Made by a program: the position numbers and the translations under genes | Shown: positions 773 to 32,209 of the stretch, one piece after another | How positions within the stretch are numbered: position 1 is the stretch's first letter | How the letters are laid out: the number at the start of each line of letters is the position of its first letter | Notes under the pieces: generated by a model | What the model saw: only the letters and a program-made list of their open reading frames with translations | Database searches by the model: none | Told to the model about the DNA's origin: nothing | IMG/VR virus record: IMGVR_UViG_2802429251_000009 | Strand: one strand, 5' to 3' | Source: a virus | Taxonomy: Duplodnaviria; Heunggongvirae; Uroviricota; Caudoviricetes | Length of the DNA: 32,209 bases

Positions 773-1780
773 CTACCCTACTGTGGACACAGTGTGGACA
801 CTCATGGAGTCAACGCCACCACGTAGCGGATTGAGTGAAACAGCATCCTGAAGATACTCCGGGGCAAAGTGCGCATAGACCATTGTCTGCTCTATGCGTG
901 AATGTCCCAGTATTCTCTGCAGGGTGATGATACTCCCGCCGTTAATCATAAAGTGGGTAGCAAAACTGTGACGCAATGCGTGAGTTGCTTGCCCGTCCGG
1001 TAGATCTGGTTTTACATCTTTCATTGTTCGCCTGAACTTCGGATATGAGGCATCAGGGAACAGATAACCTTTACCCGCAATCATTACAGCAACTTCCTCA
1101 GAGATAGGGACTGTGCGCGGTTTGTTCGTCTTTGTTTTAACGAACGTCACCCGATTCTGTATTACGTTCTCAGCTTTCAGTTTCGCGGCTTCACCCCATC
1201 GAGCGCCGGTACTTAAACAGAGGATCGCGATTTTCTTGTTGTCCCCGTCAAGATTGGCAAGTAACAATGTTATTTCTTCCTGCGTCAGATAGCCTGTTTC
1301 TGGTTTCTGCTCCTTGAGCTTTTTCATCCCTCTGAAAGGGTGTTCGCCAAAAAACAGTTCCGCATCAATTAGCGCAGTAAACATACCACTCAGGCAGGTA
1401 AGGTCGCGGTTAATACTGGCCGGTTTTATGCCTTGCCCTCTGCGAGTCATGCTGTACTGGCTAATAAGCGCTTTGGTTATCTGGAACGCGCAAGGGTCAT
1501 CAGTGATCCGGGTAAAGATTTCAATCTTACCCAAATTGGATTTTCCGTGTTCTTCATGCTTGCCTTTCAGATCCCACCAGACTTTTGTTAATTCAGACAG
1601 ATGCCGCTTATCTGTCGGTTTAGCTAGCCATTCTTTATCGTGATGGTTGTATTGAGTGTGTTTCTCAAAAGCTACAGCCTCACTTTTCTTGTCAAATTTC
1701 CTGCGGATGCGCTTTCCGTTGCGCCCTGCAGGTCTGATATCCACTTCATAACGACCATCATCGAGTTTCTTAATTGTCAT
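773..1780 (-). CDS. int: Tyrosine recombinase, P2-type integrase
   Basis: 335 aa; C-terminal catalytic region HALRHSFATHFMINGGSIITLQRILGHSRIEQTMVYAHF (R..H-x-x-R...Y motifs); sits next to the att core and the C repressor. Confidence 0.9.
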   Translation of the reverse strand: MTIKKLDDGRYEVDIRPAGRNGKRIRRKFDKKSEAVAFEKHTQYNHHDKEWLAKPTDKRHLSELTKVWWDLKGKHEEHGKSNLGKIEIFTRITDDPCAFQITKALISQYSMTRRGQGIKPASINRDLTCLSGMFTALIDAELFFGEHPFRGMKKLKEQKPETGYLTQEEITLLLANLDGDNKKIAILCLSTGARWGEAAKLKAENVIQNRVTFVKTKTNKPRTVPISEEVAVMIAGKGYLFPDASYPKFRRTMKDVKPDLPDGQATHALRHSFATHFMINGGSIITLQRILGHSRIEQTMVYAHFAPEYLQDAVSLNPLRGGVDSMSVHTVSTVG

Positions 1781-1925: not shown

Positions 1926-2225
1926 TTAACCAATCTTTTGGTCTGAGTGCTGCGATGTTGTTACATCTTGCCCAAAGTGTGCGAGGGCCGGTGCTATCTG
2001 ACCGGCTTCGGGAGCAACCTGATCGGTCATAAACCACAACGTGTATTTGCTGAACTGGGGCATTTGCAAAATCCTCATCATTACGTCCGTGGGCGGTGTA
2101 GAACGACCACTTTCGTAATAACTTAAAGTGCCATAGGGAATGCCTGTTAAATCAGCAAGTTGCTGTCTGCTGAGATACTCAGACTTTCTGATGAGTACAA
2201 TTTTCTCGTTTAAGGCGTTTGACAT
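1926..2225 (-). CDS. C: Immunity repressor, P2 C-type
   Basis: 99 aa, the same length as P2 C and closely similar (EKIVL.RKSEYLSRQQLADLTG.PYGTLSYYESGRSTPPTDVMM); divergent from cox. Confidence 0.85.
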   Translation of the reverse strand: MSNALNEKIVLIRKSEYLSRQQLADLTGIPYGTLSYYESGRSTPPTDVMMRILQMPQFSKYTLWFMTDQVAPEAGQIAPALAHFGQDVTTSQHSDQKIG

Positions 2226-2229
2226 GGTG

Positions 2230-2280
2230 TTTAGATCTCAATACTATTTGATTTAGATGTAGACTGTTTGATGTTTAGAA
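2230..2280. promoter_or_regulatory. Lysis-lysogeny switch region with three direct repeats (TTTAGAT, TTTAGAT, TTTAGAA) spaced 22 bp apart; candidate C operator half-sites overlapping the early promoter
   Basis: Repeats at ~2230, ~2252 and ~2274 read directly; P2 C is known to bind direct repeats flanking the Pe -10 region. Promoter hexamers not assigned. Confidence 0.5.
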
Positions 2281-2341
2281 ATGAACATCAAAAGCAACTA
2301 TAAGCCATTGGTGACGATTCTTAAACTTGTGAGGGCCTTAA

Positions 2342-2617
2342 ATGGTTAAACAGATCGCGTTAAGCACAGATGCCGTCCCATATCAGGAGTTCGCAAAACT
2401 CATTGGTAAAACACCGGCAGCGGTGAAGGGGATGATTGAAAAAGGAAAGCTACCTGTAGTTGAAATGACCGATCCGCAATCAACTTCCGGGCGGGCAGGT
2501 GAGTACTGGGTCTATCTTCCAGCCTGGAACAACGGCATGAAAATGGCGTATGAGAGCCGCCCGAAGGAAATTAGGGAAGGGTGGTTAATGTGGTTGGGTC
2601 TGGGCAATCCATCATAA
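2342..2617 (+). CDS. cox: Cox-type excisionase / early repressor of Pc
   Basis: 91 aa (same as P2 Cox); first gene of the rightward early operon; GAGGG Shine-Dalgarno 6 nt upstream of the ATG. Confidence 0.8.
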   Translation: MVKQIALSTDAVPYQEFAKLIGKTPAAVKGMIEKGKLPVVEMTDPQSTSGRAGEYWVYLPAWNNGMKMAYESRPKEIREGWLMWLGLGNPS

Positions 2618-2639
2618 GCAACTTACAGGGTTGAATAAA

Positions 2640-2987
2640 ATGGACACGGCAAAAATCTTTAAACTCTCAGATAGTCATACAGCGTTATCAAATGTGTTTA
2701 TACGGATTAAGGATAAAAGAACACCTTGCGGTAATTACTTTTTCCGTTTGGATAAGTTGGACTGCGTTTCGTTAGCAGATAATTCAGGACTAACACCATT
2801 AATTGAGGTTACTGGTGGGTATGTTGAACCCAGCGTCACTTATGAGCAATTCATGAGTTTTCTTTTTCAGGTATTTGATGACGTATCAAAAGGTGATAAC
2901 AGCATCAGAGTTTATGAGTTGATTGTTGATGAAGAAACAGTGCGAGATGTACCACCTCGCACAAGAAAAACGATAACGCCACAGTGA
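2640..2987 (+). CDS. Hypothetical protein (cargo within early operon)
   Basis: ORF track gives 2631 (TTG); first ATG is at 2640 with a weak SD. Lower GC than neighbouring core genes; no recognisable motif. Confidence 0.45.
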   Translation: MDTAKIFKLSDSHTALSNVFIRIKDKRTPCGNYFFRLDKLDCVSLADNSGLTPLIEVTGGYVEPSVTYEQFMSFLFQVFDDVSKGDNSIRVYELIVDEETVRDVPPRTRKTITPQ

Positions 2988-2991
2988 TGGA

Positions 2992-3471
2992 TTATTTGAA
3001 CCATTTACTAGATGGGTGAGTGTCACCAATGTGGTGCGTTTCCTCGAAAGATTTTGAGAAGTGCATGCCGGGGATAGCGACATCGGCTTGATCCAGAATA
3101 GGAGCGTCGATAATGGCATTAAGGAAAAACTGGGCATTTTGCTTTGCTAATTCTAATGAGTCAAAGCCATTTCCTGAACTTTCGGTAACTTTAGACAGTT
3201 GTCCATTTTTTGAGATAAATAATTCCCAGCCCCATAGCGATTCATGCTGTTTTAAAGAAATAACTACAGATGGACAGTTTTCTGTATCGCCAGAATTAAT
3301 ATCGTCACCAGCCTTAATAAAGATTGGCGATTCCATAAGGCCTACAAATTTCTCAAGGTCATCAATGGCTTTAGGTCTTGTTTCAAATAGTGGACTTTCA
3401 AAGAGGGGGGCACCATCGGAAAGCACCCAGTGTGATCCGTGGTCTTTTTTAAAAAATACATTGAATTTCAT
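2992..3471 (-). CDS. Hypothetical protein with two internally similar halves, weakly resembling YegP/DUF1508 repeats
   Basis: Start moved from 3519 to the internal ATG at 3471 (MKFNVFF), which has a strong SD (GGAG, 5-nt spacer). Convergent with the early operon; lower GC. Domain assignment is a by-eye resemblance only. Confidence 0.5.
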   Translation of the reverse strand: MKFNVFFKKDHGSHWVLSDGAPLFESPLFETRPKAIDDLEKFVGLMESPIFIKAGDDINSGDTENCPSVVISLKQHESLWGWELFISKNGQLSKVTESSGNGFDSLELAKQNAQFFLNAIIDAPILDQADVAIPGMHFSKSFEETHHIGDTHPSSKWFK

Positions 3472-3609
3472 TACAACTCCTTCTGTGTTGGTGATTGTTA
3501 TGCCTGATTCACCGCTCAAAGTTACACAGGCATAGCGATGTTATCACAGGAAACACGCGCCGGGCGTGGGGTCGTATCCCGGCATCTTTTCAATATGACG
3601 GAGATCAAC

Positions 3610-3831
3610 ATGGAATTAACACAATGCCCTTCACTCGCCAGTCTGCTCACGCACGGCCAGCAGATCACCCACCGTCAGCATCAACGTGGCTGGATTGAAA
3701 CCCCGGACGGGAGGTTCTTCCAGCCGAAAGCGGTAGATGTTCAATTTGTTAAAAACTGCCGTGTACCGTTCATGTCGCGCCCGCGTAATAAGCGCCGCTG
3801 GTTTTCCCGCTTAATGGGCATCTTTGCGTAG
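3610..3831 (+). CDS. Hypothetical small early-operon protein
   Basis: Start chosen at the in-frame ATG with a GGAG SD (6-nt spacer); the ORF track start at 3538 lacks an SD. Basic C-terminus. Coding status uncertain. Confidence 0.4.
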   Translation: MELTQCPSLASLLTHGQQITHRQHQRGWIETPDGRFFQPKAVDVQFVKNCRVPFMSRPRNKRRWFSRLMGIFA

Positions 3832-3846
3832 TTCGGGGAGGTGGTT

Positions 3847-4236
3847 ATGTTGATGGATAAGACAGAACAACAGCCAGGTCGCCGCCAGTTCTTAGAGCAA
3901 CGGGCGCGGCTGCAAGCAAGTTTGAACGCCTCACGCGTGAATGACACTGCAACCCGTTTTAACCGCCTGGATCATGCCTGCAAAAAGGTGATTTTCATCC
4001 TGGCAAACGATGCGTCCAGATACATAGTCGGAATGCCGAAGCTGACCGCCAAACAGCTGGGTTGTACTTACGAAAATCTAACCGAAAAGGAGCAAACGTG
4101 CCTTTTGATGGGCATTAAACGCCTTTCCGAATTTGCAGCATCAATGCCGTGGGAATTTGAGGACTACGCCGCACCACGCGCCGAAATTCAGGCGATACGA
4201 GACAAACCACCCGCGGCAGATAACGCAGTAAATTAA
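3847..4236 (+). CDS. Hypothetical early-operon protein
   Basis: ORF track start 3841 is GTG; ATG at 3847 follows a GGAGG SD. In P2 the B gene occupies this position, but homology cannot be judged by eye. Confidence 0.5.
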   Translation: MLMDKTEQQPGRRQFLEQRARLQASLNASRVNDTATRFNRLDHACKKVIFILANDASRYIVGMPKLTAKQLGCTYENLTEKEQTCLLMGIKRLSEFAASMPWEFEDYAAPRAEIQAIRDKPPAADNAVN

Positions 4237-5272: not shown

Positions 5273-5493
5273 TGGCTAGCAAAATTAATAACGGTCTTTC
5301 GGAATACCAGCGCGGCGCACTGGCTGCGCTTAACGAAGCCAAAACACTGGCCCTTGCACACGCAACGTTGGCGGGTGTTCTCGCCGGAAGTGAAGCCGCA
5401 AACACGCTGTTGATTTCTTTCAATGTGTTACTCGACCCGCTAATCGAAAAGCATTCCCAGCGGGAGGGTGATAGCGGGGCATCCAATGTCTGA
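5272..5493 (+). CDS. Small hypothetical protein (73 aa)
   Basis: ATG overlaps the dam stop (TGATG); Ala/Leu-rich; overlaps the gpA start. Coding status uncertain. Confidence 0.35.
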   Translation: MASKINNGLSEYQRGALAALNEAKTLALAHATLAGVLAGSEAANTLLISFNVLLDPLIEKHSQREGDSGASNV

Positions 5494-8101
5494 CACCGCT
5501 TTTGCATGGCCCTGGAACGCGCCGCGCCCAGCTATTGGCCTGTACACCTACGAACCGAAAAAAATCGCCCCGCTTGCAGGGGCGGTGGTACATCATCCAG
5601 CCGTAAAAAAACACATCGATCACATCTTCAAACGCGCCGGTTACAACCCCGACGAGGTTCGGGACCGTAACGCGCTTATCCAGGCGCTGGACAGGCACGA
5701 ACCGTGCGGCCTGCTACTGGCCGCCCATCAAAATATAATCCGGCAGGAAATGGAAGCCGCTAAAGCTACGACGGCAGCCTGGGTCAATACGCCGGAGGGT
5801 GTCGAAGCGCGTTTATTATCAGAGCCGTTCTTCATTCGTGAAGTCTGGCGTAAAAAAATTGAGTGGTTACGGGTCAACCGTGAAACCAGACACACCAATG
5901 ATTTTCTTATGGGGACCGTGAAAAAATCATTGCTGCGTCTTGATGTTGTACGCACAAGGCAAGGTGTTTCGCCTGATATCACCGGCGAACTGGCTGCGTA
6001 CTGGTTCGGGCGCTGGCAACGTCTGGCTGATTTCACAAAGCGGGAAGCACTGAGCGCCGCTAATGAGATCGCCAGCCGCATGGCTGAAATGCTGGGGACG
6101 GAATGCGAAGCCCTGGGACGGAATGTTTCAGACATGAACGTCGAAGAATTGGACTGGCTTTATTACCACCTGGGCCGCGAAATGCTGGCGCTTCGCATTG
6201 TACCGCCTGCATGGTATGCGCCGTGGGAACGCGAGCGCATATGCACGGCCATTTTGCGTATGGCTTCGCCTGACTGGTGGGGGCGTAAAATCTGGCGCTT
6301 GCGTTGTGACTGGCGCGAGAACCAGCTGCGTGCTGTTGGCGCGGTAAATAAAAAAGCGCACGCCTACGTTAGCGTTTCCAGCCTGATCGAGTGGCAGGAA
6401 CAGCGCCGTAAAAACCGGGATTTTTTCAAAAGTCATGAACTGGTAGACGAATACGGCAACGTTTCGTCGCTTGAGGAAATGATTAATAAATCCACGTCTA
6501 ACCCGGCTATTCGTCGCCATGAGCTTATGGCCCGAATGGCTGGGGTTGAGCTTGTCGCCCAAAGTCGCGGCGATGTTGGCATCTTCCTGACCATCACTTG
6601 CCCGTCGAAATATCACAGTAATATTGCGTCCGGCCACCATAACGCCAAATGGAATCATTCCACCGTCGCCCAGGCGCAGCGCTATTTATGCCGAGTATGG
6701 AACCGGGCAACCGCCAAACTGAAACGCGAAGATTTGCGCCCTTACGGCTTCCGCGTCGCTGAGCCGCATCATGATGGGACACCACACTGGCACGCATTGC
6801 TATTTATGCCACAAGAGCAAGTTAAAGCTACGGTTGCGATCCTTCGCGCCTACTTCATTGCGGAAGACCGCGACGAGCTGGGCCGCAATACCGGTGCTCG
6901 TTTCAAGTCAAAAAAAATGGACCCACGGAAAGGGTCAGCAACGGCGTATATCGCGAAATACATTTCGAAGAATATCGACGGCCACGCGCTGGCCGGTGAA
7001 CTGGACGACGAAAGCGGCAAGCCGCTGAATGAAACAGCCAAATATGCAATGGCCTGGGCGTCACTTCACCGCATCCGCCAGTTTCAGCCCATCGGACAGC
7101 CGCCCATATCGGTTTACCGCGAGCTGCGCAAACTGAGCAATCAGATCACGACCCGCCAGAAAATTGACAATACCTTCAAGCGCGGTGCGCCGTTGCTTGT
7201 GGATCCTGCAATGGATGCGGTTTGCGCCGCTGCCGATGTCGGGTGCTTTGCTACCTACATCATCCGCCAGGGGGGTGTTTTGATCCCGCGTGAAAACTAT
7301 GTCGTCCGTCTGGCCTATCAGCCAGCTGATGAAATGAATGCTTATTGTGAGATCCCCGAAAAGGTTTTCGGGGTCTGGTCGCCGCGTCTGGGTGATGCCT
7401 CCCGTATTAGCACCCGTCTGGTTAAATGGAAAATCCGCGCCAAATCCAAAGCCGCCACCGGGGCCAGAAACGGCCCCGGTTTGGGGGTTGACCTTTTGCC
7501 GTCGCCAACCGGCGGCGCTTGGAGTTCTGTCAATAACTCTACGGAAGACGAAAAAATCACCGATTTTTCGCTTGGTGTGGAGGGTATTACAGAAGAATCA
7601 GAAGAGGAAATCGTCGATTTTGAAAATATGGACCAGCCAACGCGGCGCAAATTGATGCGGCGACTACGTGAAACACCATTCAAAAGGCAGCAAAGCGGAT
7701 CACCTTATGAGCCAAGCAGCGAATTAGATGTCGCCTGGCGTTCTGCCGTGGAAAAAACCGAGGCCAGATCGGAGGCTGAAAAAGCCAGACGGGCGGCTCT
7801 TGCCCCTGCGATTGCCAGCCTGCTGGCTGATGCGACGTTGTATTCGGTTGAGATTTCAGAGATTCAGGCCGTTTCGCTGTTAATGGGGAGCCGTCTGGAG
7901 ATAGACGGCAAAGTTTATCAGGCCAGCGCTGACGGCCAGTTGATAACACGTCAATTACCCGATGATGCACGGACGATAAATAAATTATGGGAACGCCTGC
8001 GGGATAACCACGGCATTGATGCCACGCGCCTGCGCTTTGATCCGGTCGGGGAGTATCAAAAAATGCTGGCGGGTGTGGAAGGTCGTCTCCCAAAAGAATG
8101 A
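5486..8101 (+). CDS. Replication initiation endonuclease, P2 gpA-like (rolling-circle HUH nuclease)
   Basis: About 870 aa; HUH-type motif HHDGTPHWHALLF and catalytic tyrosine region TAYIAKYISKNIDG. The ORF track starts at GTG 5468; the first ATG is 5486. Start is ambiguous. Confidence 0.85.
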   Translation: MSDTAFAWPWNAPRPAIGLYTYEPKKIAPLAGAVVHHPAVKKHIDHIFKRAGYNPDEVRDRNALIQALDRHEPCGLLLAAHQNIIRQEMEAAKATTAAWVNTPEGVEARLLSEPFFIREVWRKKIEWLRVNRETRHTNDFLMGTVKKSLLRLDVVRTRQGVSPDITGELAAYWFGRWQRLADFTKREALSAANEIASRMAEMLGTECEALGRNVSDMNVEELDWLYYHLGREMLALRIVPPAWYAPWERERICTAILRMASPDWWGRKIWRLRCDWRENQLRAVGAVNKKAHAYVSVSSLIEWQEQRRKNRDFFKSHELVDEYGNVSSLEEMINKSTSNPAIRRHELMARMAGVELVAQSRGDVGIFLTITCPSKYHSNIASGHHNAKWNHSTVAQAQRYLCRVWNRATAKLKREDLRPYGFRVAEPHHDGTPHWHALLFMPQEQVKATVAILRAYFIAEDRDELGRNTGARFKSKKMDPRKGSATAYIAKYISKNIDGHALAGELDDESGKPLNETAKYAMAWASLHRIRQFQPIGQPPISVYRELRKLSNQITTRQKIDNTFKRGAPLLVDPAMDAVCAAADVGCFATYIIRQGGVLIPRENYVVRLAYQPADEMNAYCEIPEKVFGVWSPRLGDASRISTRLVKWKIRAKSKAATGARNGPGLGVDLLPSPTGGAWSSVNNSTEDEKITDFSLGVEGITEESEEEIVDFENMDQPTRRKLMRRLRETPFKRQQSGSPYEPSSELDVAWRSAVEKTEARSEAEKARRAALAPAIASLLADATLYSVEISEIQAVSLLMGSRLEIDGKVYQASADGQLITRQLPDDARTINKLWERLRDNHGIDATRLRFDPVGEYQKMLAGVEGRLPKE

Positions 8102-8323: not shown

Positions 8324-9373
8324 ATGGTTGATATAGAAGAAGTTATTACTAAGAAAAGAAATTCATTAAAGGCCGATCGTTTAGATATGTCTTTTGGTGA
8401 ATTGATGAATATGTTTGAAGACGGAGATTTATTCATCACTCCTGAATATCAAAGGGCATTTCGTTGGTCTAATTTTCAACAAACAAGATTTATTGAGTCT
8501 GTTTTATTGGGAATACCGATCCCCCCGATTTTTGTAGCAGAAGATGATAAGGGAAAATGGGAGGTTGTTGATGGCTTACAGCGTATATCAACAATTTTTT
8601 CATTTTTTGGTGTTCTTACTAATCTCCCAGAAAAAAACAACCTGAAACTATGCAAAGGAGAAATGGTTGCCGAGTTAGAAAATATAACTATTGATGCTCT
8701 TCCAATCAGATTAAAAACAACCATTAAAAGAGCAGTTTGTAGAGTTGAGATTGTTCGCTGGGATAGTAACGAAGATATTAGGTATGAACTATTTAATCGA
8801 CTGAATACAGGGGCTAGCCCGTTATCTGATCAAGAGATAAGAAACTGTATTTTTAGATCATACCCTGTTGATTTAAATAAAATATTGCGTGAAATTGCAG
8901 TTATGCCAAATTTCATTGAGTTGATTAACCCTTCAGCAGCTAAAAAAGAAGAAATGTTTTTAGAGGAGTTAGTGCTTCGCTATTTTGCTTTTAAACATTT
9001 TGATGGTGATTTTAATACTACTGTTCCTAATTTCCTTTCAGACTTCATGCGCTCCGTGTCGAAAGGTGACATTGCTTTTGATTTAGATTGTGAAAAAAAA
9101 TCATTTGTTGAGTTAATTGATTTCTTAATATCTCATGGCGGCAAGGAGTTATTTAGACCTAATGGACCTTTTGCCTTACATCTTTTTGATTCTATATCAT
9201 ACGCTTTGCCAAAAGTATTCGATACTGTCATTGGTAATGAGCAAAAAATTACAGAAGCTATAAATACATTGCTTACTGACGAAAAATATCAAAGTATTAG
9301 CGTGCTCACATTCTCAACTGCACGTACTCGTAATCGGATGGATCGAGCTTTAGAGATTTTCAAAAGTGCATAG
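8324..9373 (+). CDS. DUF262 (ParB/GmrS-N-like) domain protein without an HNH/DUF1524 domain; candidate defence-system component
   Basis: N-terminal signature ITPEYQRAFRWSNFQQTRFIESVLLGIPIPPIF...KWEVVDGLQRISTI; GGAG SD 7 nt upstream; strongly AT-rich; no H-N-H motif seen in the C-terminal half. Confidence 0.75.
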   Translation: MVDIEEVITKKRNSLKADRLDMSFGELMNMFEDGDLFITPEYQRAFRWSNFQQTRFIESVLLGIPIPPIFVAEDDKGKWEVVDGLQRISTIFSFFGVLTNLPEKNNLKLCKGEMVAELENITIDALPIRLKTTIKRAVCRVEIVRWDSNEDIRYELFNRLNTGASPLSDQEIRNCIFRSYPVDLNKILREIAVMPNFIELINPSAAKKEEMFLEELVLRYFAFKHFDGDFNTTVPNFLSDFMRSVSKGDIAFDLDCEKKSFVELIDFLISHGGKELFRPNGPFALHLFDSISYALPKVFDTVIGNEQKITEAINTLLTDEKYQSISVLTFSTARTRNRMDRALEIFKSA

Positions 9374-9986
9374 TTTAGTGGCTGAAATTTATGAAACAAA
9401 CTCCTGGCGAGATGGGGAGTTTGCTAAATTTAGAGTCAACCCCCATCAAGTAGACCCTGTTTTATGGGGGCGGATGTGTGTACCGATGATTTATGCAAAC
9501 TGGGAGGGTTTTGTAGTTAGTTCATTAAAAATGCTTTTAAAGCATTTAAATAAATTAGAACTAACCCCATTACAAATACCTACTAGATTAGTTGTAGTTG
9601 GATTAGGTGACACATATAGAAGTTTAAGTGGGAAGCAATCATTTGAACAACGATGTGAGTTCACTGATAAATTTAATGAGTTATTAAAAAAAACCGTTAA
9701 ATTTAAGACAAAAATTGAAACTAAATCGAATTTGCATAGTGGTGTATTGAAAGAACTATGTCAAATGTTTGCTTTTGATTTTGAAAGATTTAGTGACGTA
9801 ACTGTTACTCTAGATCGTCTTGTTCAAGTGAGAAACTGTATTGCACATGGAGAAAACTCGATTTTACCAACTCAGGAAAATATTGAGTTATACATCGATG
9901 CAGTGAAAGCAGCAATTGATATCATGTTAGAAGAAATTGACTTGTTTTTAACGCAAGAAAGTTATTTATATAAACAGCAAGCCTAA
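9366..9986 (+). CDS. Small protein with HEPN-like Rx4H motif (RNCIAHGE); candidate effector partner of the DUF262 protein
   Basis: GTG start overlaps the upstream stop by 8 nt (coupled); alternative in-frame ATG at 9474. The motif assignment is by eye only. Confidence 0.5.
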   Translation: MHSLVAEIYETNSWRDGEFAKFRVNPHQVDPVLWGRMCVPMIYANWEGFVVSSLKMLLKHLNKLELTPLQIPTRLVVVGLGDTYRSLSGKQSFEQRCEFTDKFNELLKKTVKFKTKIETKSNLHSGVLKELCQMFAFDFERFSDVTVTLDRLVQVRNCIAHGENSILPTQENIELYIDAVKAAIDIMLEEIDLFLTQESYLYKQQA

Positions 9987-31243: not shown

Positions 31244-32209
31244 TTATAGAAGTTTACTTACTGAAATCAGTTTGGGAGATTTAATGCCAATCTCACATAA
31301 TGTTGTATGATGTGCTTCACGCTCAGTTTCCTGATAATAGGTGGCTATCCATTCCGTATTTTTACTAACAATGCTATGTATAAAAGAAAAGTAGGGAACA
31401 TCTACAGATGATAACGAATGGCCGATGATGATGATTTCGTCTACGTTACTGAGATTTTTAAAAAATTTAGCGCTGTCAGCAATGACTTTTTCAGTATTCT
31501 TAAAAGAAGAAGTGAAGTATTTATTAATAGTCTGCTTTCCCATTTCATAAGAGTGATCGTAATTATCAGCCATCCACTGACGCCACTCTTCAAGTTCTTC
31601 ATCGGTTGCATTTTCGGGCGGGACTGCTTCCTTTTCTTCAAAGTTGATAGGGTCAATACCATGACCTAAAATCAACTGTTGATCTGATGATGCTTTCCCA
31701 TGAATATATAAAATTTGTCTATCATCAATACTATAATATTTCTGAAGAGTGTCAGTGTAATTAAAACTGATAAAGATAGAATCAGAATCGATACGCAATC
31801 TTTTTTTTAAATTAAGTTCGGGGTAGTTAACCTGCAATATAAATGACTTGAATTGTGTTAAAAGTCCCTCGGTTAAATTTTCTAGTATACGTTCCATTTC
31901 AATGGATAATGAGTTCCAGTCCCTGTCACGAAAATCGGGGCTGCTAATTTGGGGTAAAAGATAGCTAAACTCTTCGAGCACCGACTCTGTATCCAGACCC
32001 GCTAAGCTGTTTTCGAAATCAGACCAAAGAGAATGTTTTGACTTATCAACTGCGGAAAGAGAAGGGGGTAAGTCAGTAAATCCCATAAACTCAACCAAGT
32101 GATCGTAAATGTCTCGATCTTTCTTCCGAAGATAATCCCCAAATGAGAAATAGCTCGTGTCAAGTTCGTGATGCAGATCAAACCCATTCCCGATGATGTA
32201 TAGCTTCAT
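31244..32209 (-). CDS. AbiH-like abortive-infection family protein (candidate)
   Basis: N-terminus MKLYIIGNGFDLHHELDTSY matches the IIGNGFD motif I associate with the AbiH family; strongly AT-rich; ATG is the last codon position of the window, so the promoter lies outside. Confidence 0.5.
   Translation of the reverse strand: MKLYIIGNGFDLHHELDTSYFSFGDYLRKKDRDIYDHLVEFMGFTDLPPSLSAVDKSKHSLWSDFENSLAGLDTESVLEEFSYLLPQISSPDFRDRDWNSLSIEMERILENLTEGLLTQFKSFILQVNYPELNLKKRLRIDSDSIFISFNYTDTLQKYYSIDDRQILYIHGKASSDQQLILGHGIDPINFEEKEAVPPENATDEELEEWRQWMADNYDHSYEMGKQTINKYFTSSFKNTEKVIADSAKFFKNLSNVDEIIIIGHSLSSVDVPYFSFIHSIVSKNTEWIATYYQETEREAHHTTLCEIGIKSPKLISVSKLL

Follow-up and report, generated by a model that had tools for sequence, protein, structure and literature searches.

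A paired accessory module between cox and fil of a P2-like prophage, with predicted transcription signals for its leftward gene

Between cox and the replication genes of a P2/186-like (Peduoviridae) prophage lie two small convergent genes, one of which opposes the early operon. The question raised by this locus is whether these are real genes, how they came to be there, what holds them together and what they might do.

Two genuine genes in an inserted module

The window (the whole stretch of DNA analysed here, 32,209 nucleotides) is this prophage, integrated beside yegR (1-318). The following features frame the locus:

773-1780, minus strand: integrase
1926-2225, minus strand: C repressor, P2-type
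2219-2247, plus strand: Pe-like promoter (predicted)
2324-2297, minus strand: Pc-like promoter (predicted)
2342-2617, plus strand: cox, first gene of the early lytic operon and left border of the module (Pfam Phage_Cox, E 5.9e-43)
2618-3609: accessory module of about 1 kb, comprising orfA, orfB and a conserved non-coding spacer; delimited by homology breakpoints and GC content
2640-2987, plus strand: orfA, 115 aa, on the same strand as the early operon
2992-3471, minus strand: orfB, 159 aa, opposed to the early operon
3610-3831, plus strand: fil, 186-type filamentation protein and right border of the module (Pfam Phage_186_Fil, E 8.9e-12)

The predicted Pe-like and Pc-like promoters are arranged face to face ahead of cox. 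In P2, cox is followed by orf78 and B; the window phage has no B gene and carries a 186-type fil instead. Downstream of fil come a gene for a protein of 129 aa (orf129), then dam, then the gene for replication endonuclease A (5468-8101). The same gene layout is annotated by the NCBI pipeline (PGAP) in E. coli chromosomes, including a 73-aa Fil at the matching position. A promoter scan revealed no plus-strand promoter for fil.

A preliminary description of this DNA had reported a low-GC convergent gene pair at 2640-3471, and this was confirmed: the two ORFs converge with 4 bp separating their stop codons, and their GC contents are 38.5% (orfA) and 40.0% (orfB). GC content is 49.6% in cox, 54.1% in fil, 54.4% in gene A and 51.6% in the window, and GC3 is 0.33 for orfA and 0.36 for orfB compared with 0.53-0.62 in the genes used for comparison. 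As limits of the two ORFs these coordinates are correct, but the module itself extends further, since the non-coding spacer of 138 bp between orfB and fil is part of the inserted unit.

Both orfA and orfB are genuine coding genes, given that each has a full-length match to a PHROG family (phrog_10410 and phrog_9021), that their homologues (30-98% identity) align with few indels, that PGAP calls the identical ORFs in E. coli, and that AlphaFold2 returns confident models (pLDDT of 84 for OrfB and 76 for OrfA). That they might instead be spurious ORFs, or decaying remnants in an AT-rich spacer, would be in line with the absence of functional annotation everywhere and with a tblastn search of both proteins, which gave zero matches among 50,697 deposited phage genomes. 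The preliminary description had allowed for this in case neither expression nor homologues existed. We consider its probability negligible: it is already refuted by the conservation data, namely families conserved over their full length to as little as 30% identity, folds predicted with confidence, conservation of the ribosome-binding site, and records in both PGAP and PHROG.

Both gene families are small. The orfA/orfB pair is known solely from prophages and metagenomes, a profile of OrfB recovered only 25 clusters (50% identity) among 1.84 billion proteins, and a scan of GTDB species genomes for the pattern of the orfB alignment gave no relatives. The large proteins P0060-P0062, of cadherin-like or repeat type, reached no more than marginal E-values and were regarded as spurious matches of OrfB. 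Database names for OrfA and OrfB read 'hypothetical protein' throughout, neither protein has a Pfam or NCBIfam match, and a search of PADLOC-DB 2.0 with orfA, orfB, fil and orf129 found no defence family at E <= 1. In the literature we found no mention of the OrfA and OrfB accessions or of their PHROG numbers. A scan of 2200-4000 against Rfam (E <= 5) produced chance lncRNA matches only.

The limits of the inserted unit were set by comparison with related loci. Homology to Citrobacter loci breaks at 2618/2622, directly past the cox stop codon, and homology to Salmonella phage SW5 resumes at 3625. The Salmonella phages SW5, SI7 and SW3 match the window at 96% identity in fil and the gene after it; the module is absent from them, and their cox stop codon and fil start codon almost touch. 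Based on the breakpoints after the cox stop codon and the empty cox-fil junction in these phages, we place the inserted unit at about 2618-3609. The insertion between cox and the replication genes that had been proposed earlier is thereby borne out, and the genes are not carried universally by related phages, close relatives being without them.

Absence from a close relative, deviating composition and rarity among complete E. coli genomes (19 of 5426) show that orfA and orfB are accessory and not core genes. Within these E. coli genomes the module always resides in the same prophage backbone; the fil-orf129 backbone is in turn confined to the same 19 genomes, and its module-less version is absent from that set. 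Seven of the 19 carry an IS3-family insertion in orfA together with an intact orfB, and OrfB alone is thus tolerated in lysogens. The module lies within the int-gpA interval, outside the main gpA-gpQ hotspot. That int-gpA is a minor defence hotspot of P2-like prophages was noted only recently; it accounts for 8% of P2-like prophage defence systems (PMC13586616).

To evaluate how strictly the two genes are associated, loci were collected from protein searches, IMG/VR scans and contig look-ups (n = 19). Convergent neighbours resembling orfA and orfB were present in 17 of these, with stop-to-stop distances between -9 (overlap) and +20 nt, and identities to the window proteins drop in parallel, from 97%/97% to approximately 31%/30%. 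The hosts of the pair are Escherichia, Citrobacter, Serratia, Salmonella and Providencia. Its backbones vary, with a replication gene of either GPA type or Toprim type and differing neighbour genes on both sides, and all readable contexts are early regions of P2-like prophages. In Serratia the OrfA domain forms the C-terminal half of a 214-aa protein, whose gene is convergent with orfB as elsewhere. The two exceptions to pairing are a decayed copy (L029) and a locus in which orfB has been swapped out (L025). Up to four small ORFs lie between cox and orfA in other loci, where the window has a gap of 23 bp.

Predicted transcription signals of orfB and the slot beside fil

For a gene opposed to the early operon, the preliminary description had argued that a promoter of its own is needed. 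The spacer and the 3' end of orfB contain the following candidate signals, assessed in an alignment of the orfB upstream region from 14 loci and in a terminator scan:

2940-2962, minus strand: terminator-like hairpin of 10 bp followed by TGTTTCTTCAT, 3' of the orfB stop codon (terminator scan)
3477-3481, minus strand: ribosome-binding site AGGAG, 5 nt before the orfB ATG, invariant or nearly so in 14 loci
3498-3535, minus strand: 5' stem-loop with a stem of about 8 bp and a loop of about 21 nt (inverted repeat I13), at the predicted 5' end of the mRNA
3538-3546, minus strand: extended -10 motif TGaTAACAT, predicted sigma-70 promoter of orfB (14-locus conservation)
3559-3583, no strand assigned: GC-rich palindrome GCCGGG-N13-CCCGGC with an overlapping alternative CACGC/GCGTG (14-locus conservation)

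The predicted start of orfB transcription lies near 3531. Across the 14 loci the TG, -12T, -11A and -7T of the promoter motif are invariant and positions -10 to -8 are variable; the motif is thus invariant precisely at the functionally critical positions of an extended -10 element, while the less critical three vary. Nine of the 11 scanned loci, the distant L038 and L041 among them, have TGnTAnnnT 62-68 nt before the ATG; in the two Providencia-type loci this distance is 39-44 nt. The whole window contains 33 matches to this pattern on both strands, and a single one within 2200-3900. Inspection by eye of the region upstream of orfB revealed no LexA box, CRP site, P2 late-promoter dyad (TGT-N12-ACA) or C-operator repeat (TTTAGA).

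The 5' stem-loop has five of nine pairs altered on both sides, with a covariation score that was unmatched in 500 shuffles, and L038 and L041 possess a hairpin of unrelated sequence at the equivalent 5' position. Its strand test gave balanced counts of G-U and A-C. The 3' hairpin is formed at the same site in all 13 folded loci; read on the minus strand, 93.6% of cells are paired and three pairs are altered on both sides. Seventeen cells are G-U on the minus strand and would be C-A mismatches on the plus strand, which argues that the hairpin is selected in the orfB and not in the orfA transcript. As the hairpin sits within orfA codons 101-108 (TVRDVPPRT), these codons appear to be under a double constraint of coding and RNA structure. 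Its U-tract is interrupted, so that termination may be partial. With conserved promoter and terminator signals extending to distant loci, orfB is predicted to be a self-contained leftward transcription unit, in agreement with the promoter requirement argued for earlier.

The GC-rich palindrome lies just upstream of the predicted orfB promoter and 27 nt ahead of fil. It is kept in 14 of 14 loci with a loop of 8-13 nt and one compensatory change, and it scans as terminator-like on both strands, although the T-run is not conserved. The palindrome followed by TCTTTTC was considered as a candidate plus-strand terminator before fil, but L004, L017 and L033 do not conserve the T-run.

No promoter of its own was found for orfA in the promoter scan. 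Given this and its start 23 bp after cox, orfA should depend on Pe. This bears on the possibility that the prophage is stabilised by a toxin-antitoxin or addiction pair, in which OrfB would be the toxin and OrfA the antitoxin. Such a pair would account for two small genes strictly co-inherited on a mobile element; however, the genes are convergent and do not form the autoregulated co-directional operon of type II systems, orfA behind a repressed Pe would be silent in the lysogen where an antitoxin is required, seven E. coli genomes combine an intact orfB with an IS-disrupted orfA, and Pfam, NCBIfam and PADLOC were all blank. We regard this explanation as highly improbable and already largely refuted.

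Next we compared the module with known phage elements. Like morons and the P2 lysogenic-conversion genes old, tin and Z/fun, it is absent from close relatives with collinear flanks and has its own base composition. An own promoter and terminator are predicted, at the sequence level, for orfB and are lacking for orfA; moron architecture would therefore be a property of orfB only, with orfA riding on the early operon. Where the preliminary description had seen two morons, the accessory nature of the module and the moron-like character of orfB hold, but what is found is one obligate, co-diverging pair (17 of 19 loci) in which orfA has no promoter. As in old and tin, transcription of orfB runs against the neighbouring operon. 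Unlike P2 morons, the module lies inside the essential early operon, whose transcription must traverse orfB in antisense direction, and orfB is always accompanied by a sense-strand partner whose 3' codons hold the predicted orfB terminator; no anti-phage activity is known for the module.

The arrangement also resembles apl-cII/pE of phage 186, where the early lytic promoter is opposed by a leftward promoter located beyond the first early gene, and the fil gene of 186 is present in the window phage as well. The early operon of the window lacks a gene for a CII-like helix-turn-helix protein. In contrast to pE, whose transcript reads into the repressor and int genes, the orfB promoter is predicted to drive a protein-coding gene that ends at a hairpin before cox; the hairpin at 2940-2962 argues for such termination.

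Two further loci suggest that the spacer promoter can serve other genes. In L025, of Citrobacter braakii type, homology to the window ends at 2963, just beyond the 3' hairpin, and restarts at 3467, where orfB has its start codon. Between these breakpoints the locus carries an unrelated 91-aa helical ORF (phrog_32592) on the minus strand; it retains most of orfA (88% identity, joined to the tail of another gene) and has no orfB. L051, found by a scan for the promoter sequence, has the same spacer followed by a different gene of 160 aa (phrog_6315), whose product contains a hydrophobic segment at residues 44-70, predicted to be a membrane segment. The leftward promoter adjoining fil thus appears to be a slot for alternative cargos, which is small and previously undescribed. 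Since both orfA and orfB are missing from L051, orfA is tied to orfB rather than to the slot. A 101-aa sense-strand gene in L051 was discarded as a partner of its cargo; it also occurs beside orfA/orfB in Citrobacter and is therefore an independent early gene.

Together, these data indicate a real, obligately paired accessory module that carries an autonomous orfB unit, a reading to which we assign a probability of about 0.9. The module is a new, uncharacterised addition to the known class of prophage accessory cassettes.

OrfB as a diverged relative of the DUF1508 fold

OrfA and OrfB are both soluble proteins. OrfA is acidic and is modelled by AlphaFold2 as a beta-sheet with one long helix; a fold search gave no significant match, and it has no recognisable relative and no helix-turn-helix. 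OrfB is likewise acidic (pI 5.1), has no hydrophobic segment and shows clear purifying selection for a folded product. In its model a variable linker connects two beta-beta-beta-alpha-beta units (residues 2-53 and 68-127); they are followed by a C-terminal tail that combines low model confidence with strong conservation. The tail contains a DxHPS motif, in which D150 and P153 never vary, H152 hardly does, and S154 is constant in the closer homologues.

The two halves of OrfB, described earlier as internally similar, are homologous: a profile-profile comparison by hhalign aligned residues 7-54 with 74-129 at a probability of 94.8% (E 5e-8), as in the tandem of YegP type that arises by internal duplication. 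The weak resemblance to YegP/DUF1508 that had been noted was supported by fold search but not by Pfam. OrfB contains the domain of approximately 50-60 residues, with a three-stranded antiparallel sheet packed on one helix, that characterises DUF1508; Pfam DUF1508 (PF07411), however, did not match OrfB at E <= 1, nor six distant members of the OrfB family at E <= 0.1. The OrfB family profile searched against PDB sequences had 6Q2Z as its best match, which was non-significant (E 0.45), and hhalign of the profile with the single 6Q2Z sequence gave 55% (E 1e-4). Weighing support from fold and repeat against the missing Pfam match, we call OrfB a diverged tandem DUF1508-like protein and not a member of the Pfam family.

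Named members of UPF0339/DUF1508 are E. coli YegP, Haloferax HVO_2922 (6Q2Z), Shewanella SO_3888 (2K49) and Neisseria NMB1088 (3BID). Compared with these, each OrfB repeat has an additional beta-strand, the protein ends in a conserved tail of 30 residues with the DxHPS motif, and it is acidic, phage-borne and provided with an obligate partner gene. To our knowledge DUF1508/UPF0339 has no known function, and the fold of OrfB therefore yields no mechanism. In published work, DUF1508 is described as stress-induced in the case of YegP and as assembling into dimers or pseudo-dimers, and tandem DUF1508 has been described as the putative sensor domain of Menshen NsnA and also in bacterial ubiquitin-like proteins; one study likened the DUF1508 of NsnA to the single-strand-binding folds of PC4 and Whirly (PMC12065111; bioRxiv 10.1101/2024.11.21.623966).

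Possible roles of the pair in lysogeny and lytic growth

The preliminary description had suggested superinfection exclusion, anti-defence or host takeover as function of the genes, for which PADLOC, Pfam and NCBIfam give no support. As orfB faces Pe with signals of its own and orfA would be transcribed only from Pe, the two genes are expected to be expressed in opposite states of the phage. Prophage accessory genes with their own promoters often have phage-exclusion or host-modifying functions. We tentatively favour, at rather less than even odds, that OrfB is an effector of the lysogenic phase and OrfA its early-lytic partner or off-switch. In the lysogen, where Pe is repressed, orfB would be transcribed alone and OrfB would be a lysogenic-conversion product, most likely one that binds and blocks a target in the host or in an incoming phage, either a protein or a single-stranded nucleic acid. 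Upon induction or infection, transcription from Pe would yield OrfA early and, running in antisense across orfB and its promoter, might shut off further expression of orfB by transcriptional interference. Interference between convergent promoters is reportedly well documented in phage 186 by Callen, Shearwin and Egan. By a putative interaction, OrfA would then neutralise or redirect pre-existing OrfB and so spare the phage's own lytic cycle.

This effector model fits the location in a minor defence hotspot, the alternative cargo with a membrane segment, and the seven of 19 E. coli genomes in which orfA is disrupted by an IS and orfB is intact. Several observations count against an effector-antidote relationship. 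L025 keeps most of orfA without orfB, which is unexpected if OrfA serves only to counter OrfB; neither protein matches a known defence or anti-defence family; the GC-rich palindrome is not accounted for by the model; and termination at the 3' hairpin, with its interrupted U-tract, is possibly partial.

The pair might instead act in the lytic phase, in host takeover or anti-defence, with the orfB promoter firing on infection and the two proteins forming a complex or sharing a host target alongside the neighbouring fil, itself an early gene directed at the host. Under this explanation, which we find somewhat unlikely, a gene needed in lytic growth would be placed head-on to a strong early promoter and equipped with its own promoter and terminator, which is not normally the case. 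Moreover, one of the other cargos of this slot is a likely membrane protein, typical of lysogenic-conversion genes, and the Acr-like fold matches are generic small alpha/beta folds that ranked under the UPF0339 matches.

The module might also be mainly regulatory, with the leftward transcript of the orfB promoter serving to insulate or tune the early operon. In lysogens it might limit leaky read-through from Pe into fil, dam and A; it might also provide RNA antisense to orfA and cox and thereby favour lysogeny, as with CII-pE of 186, with OrfA controlling the promoter through the GC-rich palindrome. However, the purifying selection on OrfB implies that the unit is more than a promoter, and the conserved minus-strand hairpin is predicted to end the transcript ahead of cox. 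An acidic OrfA without helix-turn-helix, and half-sites of the palindrome spaced by 8-13 nt, unlike a fixed dimer-binding site, also speak against it. Taken as a whole, a regulatory role is improbable.

The proposed effector and off-switch can be drawn into a more specific form, a two-state system for phage exclusion or host modulation. Here a lysogen-only effector of tandem DUF1508 fold would be paired with an early-lytic protein antidote, and expression of the two would be mutually exclusive by virtue of their convergence and shared 3' end. In this full form we consider the reading unlikely. The logic of the effector model as such would be analogous to that of BstA and its aba element, a prophage defence gene with a self-immunity DNA element: both would combine a blocker expressed in the lysogen with a means of leaving the prophage's lytic growth unhindered. 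The analogy is one of function only; there is no similarity in sequence or fold between the two systems, and aba is a DNA element, whereas the antidote proposed here is a protein.

If true, the two-state reading would provide a first function and a first partner protein for the UPF0339/YegP fold, and P2-like phages would have a third slot for cargo, marked by the conserved leftward promoter beside fil. Should the module have no phenotype, it would be an ordinary phage gene pair without assigned function. The fold is widespread in bacteria and archaea, and the obligate partner and phage context of OrfB offer a way into it. A terminator embedded in a partner gene and kept on one strand only would be a neat case of combined coding and RNA-structure constraint. 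The module, at about 1 kb, is compact and easily cloned, and predicts a transcript that starts near 3531 and ends near 2940, as well as an interaction between OrfA and OrfB.

Codons of orfA overlapping the orfB 3' hairpin

The two genes of the low-GC convergent pair, orfA (rightward) and orfB (leftward), have a predicted RNA structure near their facing 3' ends:

2940-2962, minus strand: 3' hairpin of orfB, overlapping codons 101-108 of orfA

The third positions of the orfA codons for Arg102 and Pro106 covary, from CGA/CCT to CGG/CCC, and the G-U pairs of the hairpin occur on the minus strand only. These bases are under dual constraint, serving as coding sequence for orfA and as RNA structure for orfB.

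The orfB promoter region and its other cargos

The predicted orfB promoter, located in the spacer upstream of fil, appears from sequence comparison to be shared with two other loci, L051 and L025, where it would drive different leftward cargos:

L051 8522-9527: cargo encoding a phrog_6315 protein of 160 aa that contains a hydrophobic segment
L025 1540-2026: cargo encoding a phrog_32592 protein, helical and 91 aa long

The orfA of L025 is fused to the tail of a gene from another, unrelated early family, whose motif is YYxNGxHAGN...WGMN. A further element separates the orfB promoter from the early gene that follows:

3559-3583: GC-rich palindrome, GCCGGG-N13-CCCGGC

This palindrome, which is overlapped by an alternative stem (CACGC/GCGTG), is kept in all module-carrying loci with a loop of 8 to 13 nt, and may act as a partial terminator, an operator or an RNA element.

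Early transcription: insertions and putative operators

Among the 19 E. coli genomes with the prophage, seven have orfA interrupted by an IS3-family element, inserted at two or three distinct sites and in both orientations, and orfB is intact in all seven. Two sites were located as follows:

Window-equivalent 2705 and 2949-2952: IS3-family insertions in orfA, in loci L002 (E. coli 2011C-4251) and L003 (E. coli RM13322)

Such insertions should also keep early transcripts from reaching fil, dam and A. One copy of this prophage, that of E. coli SW071610 (H24), has an IS1 element inserted in its fil/orf129 region.

The immunity region contains a set of short repeats:

2225-2279: three TTTAGA repeats spaced by about 21-22 bp, between the Pe-like (early) and Pc-like (facing) promoters

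These are probably the C-repressor operators of the prophage's immunity type.

Defence candidates elsewhere in the window

Two further regions encode candidate defence functions:

8324-9986, plus strand: two-gene candidate in the canonical gpA-gpQ hotspot, with PADLOC matches
31244-32209, minus strand: AbiH-like abortive-infection ORF at the window's right-hand edge (Pfam AbiH, E 7.9e-62; PADLOC AbiH)

The first gene at 8324-9986 encodes a GmrSD_N/DUF262 protein, for which PADLOC gives matches to NsnA (E 1.6e-66) and PD-T4-2_A; the second encodes a RiboL-PSP HEPN protein. An N-terminal tandem DUF1508 'sensor' has been reported in some Menshen NsnA proteins (PMC12065111), and the tandem DUF1508 of these members would have the same fold as that predicted for OrfB. 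The AbiH-like ORF extends to the window's final base, 32209.
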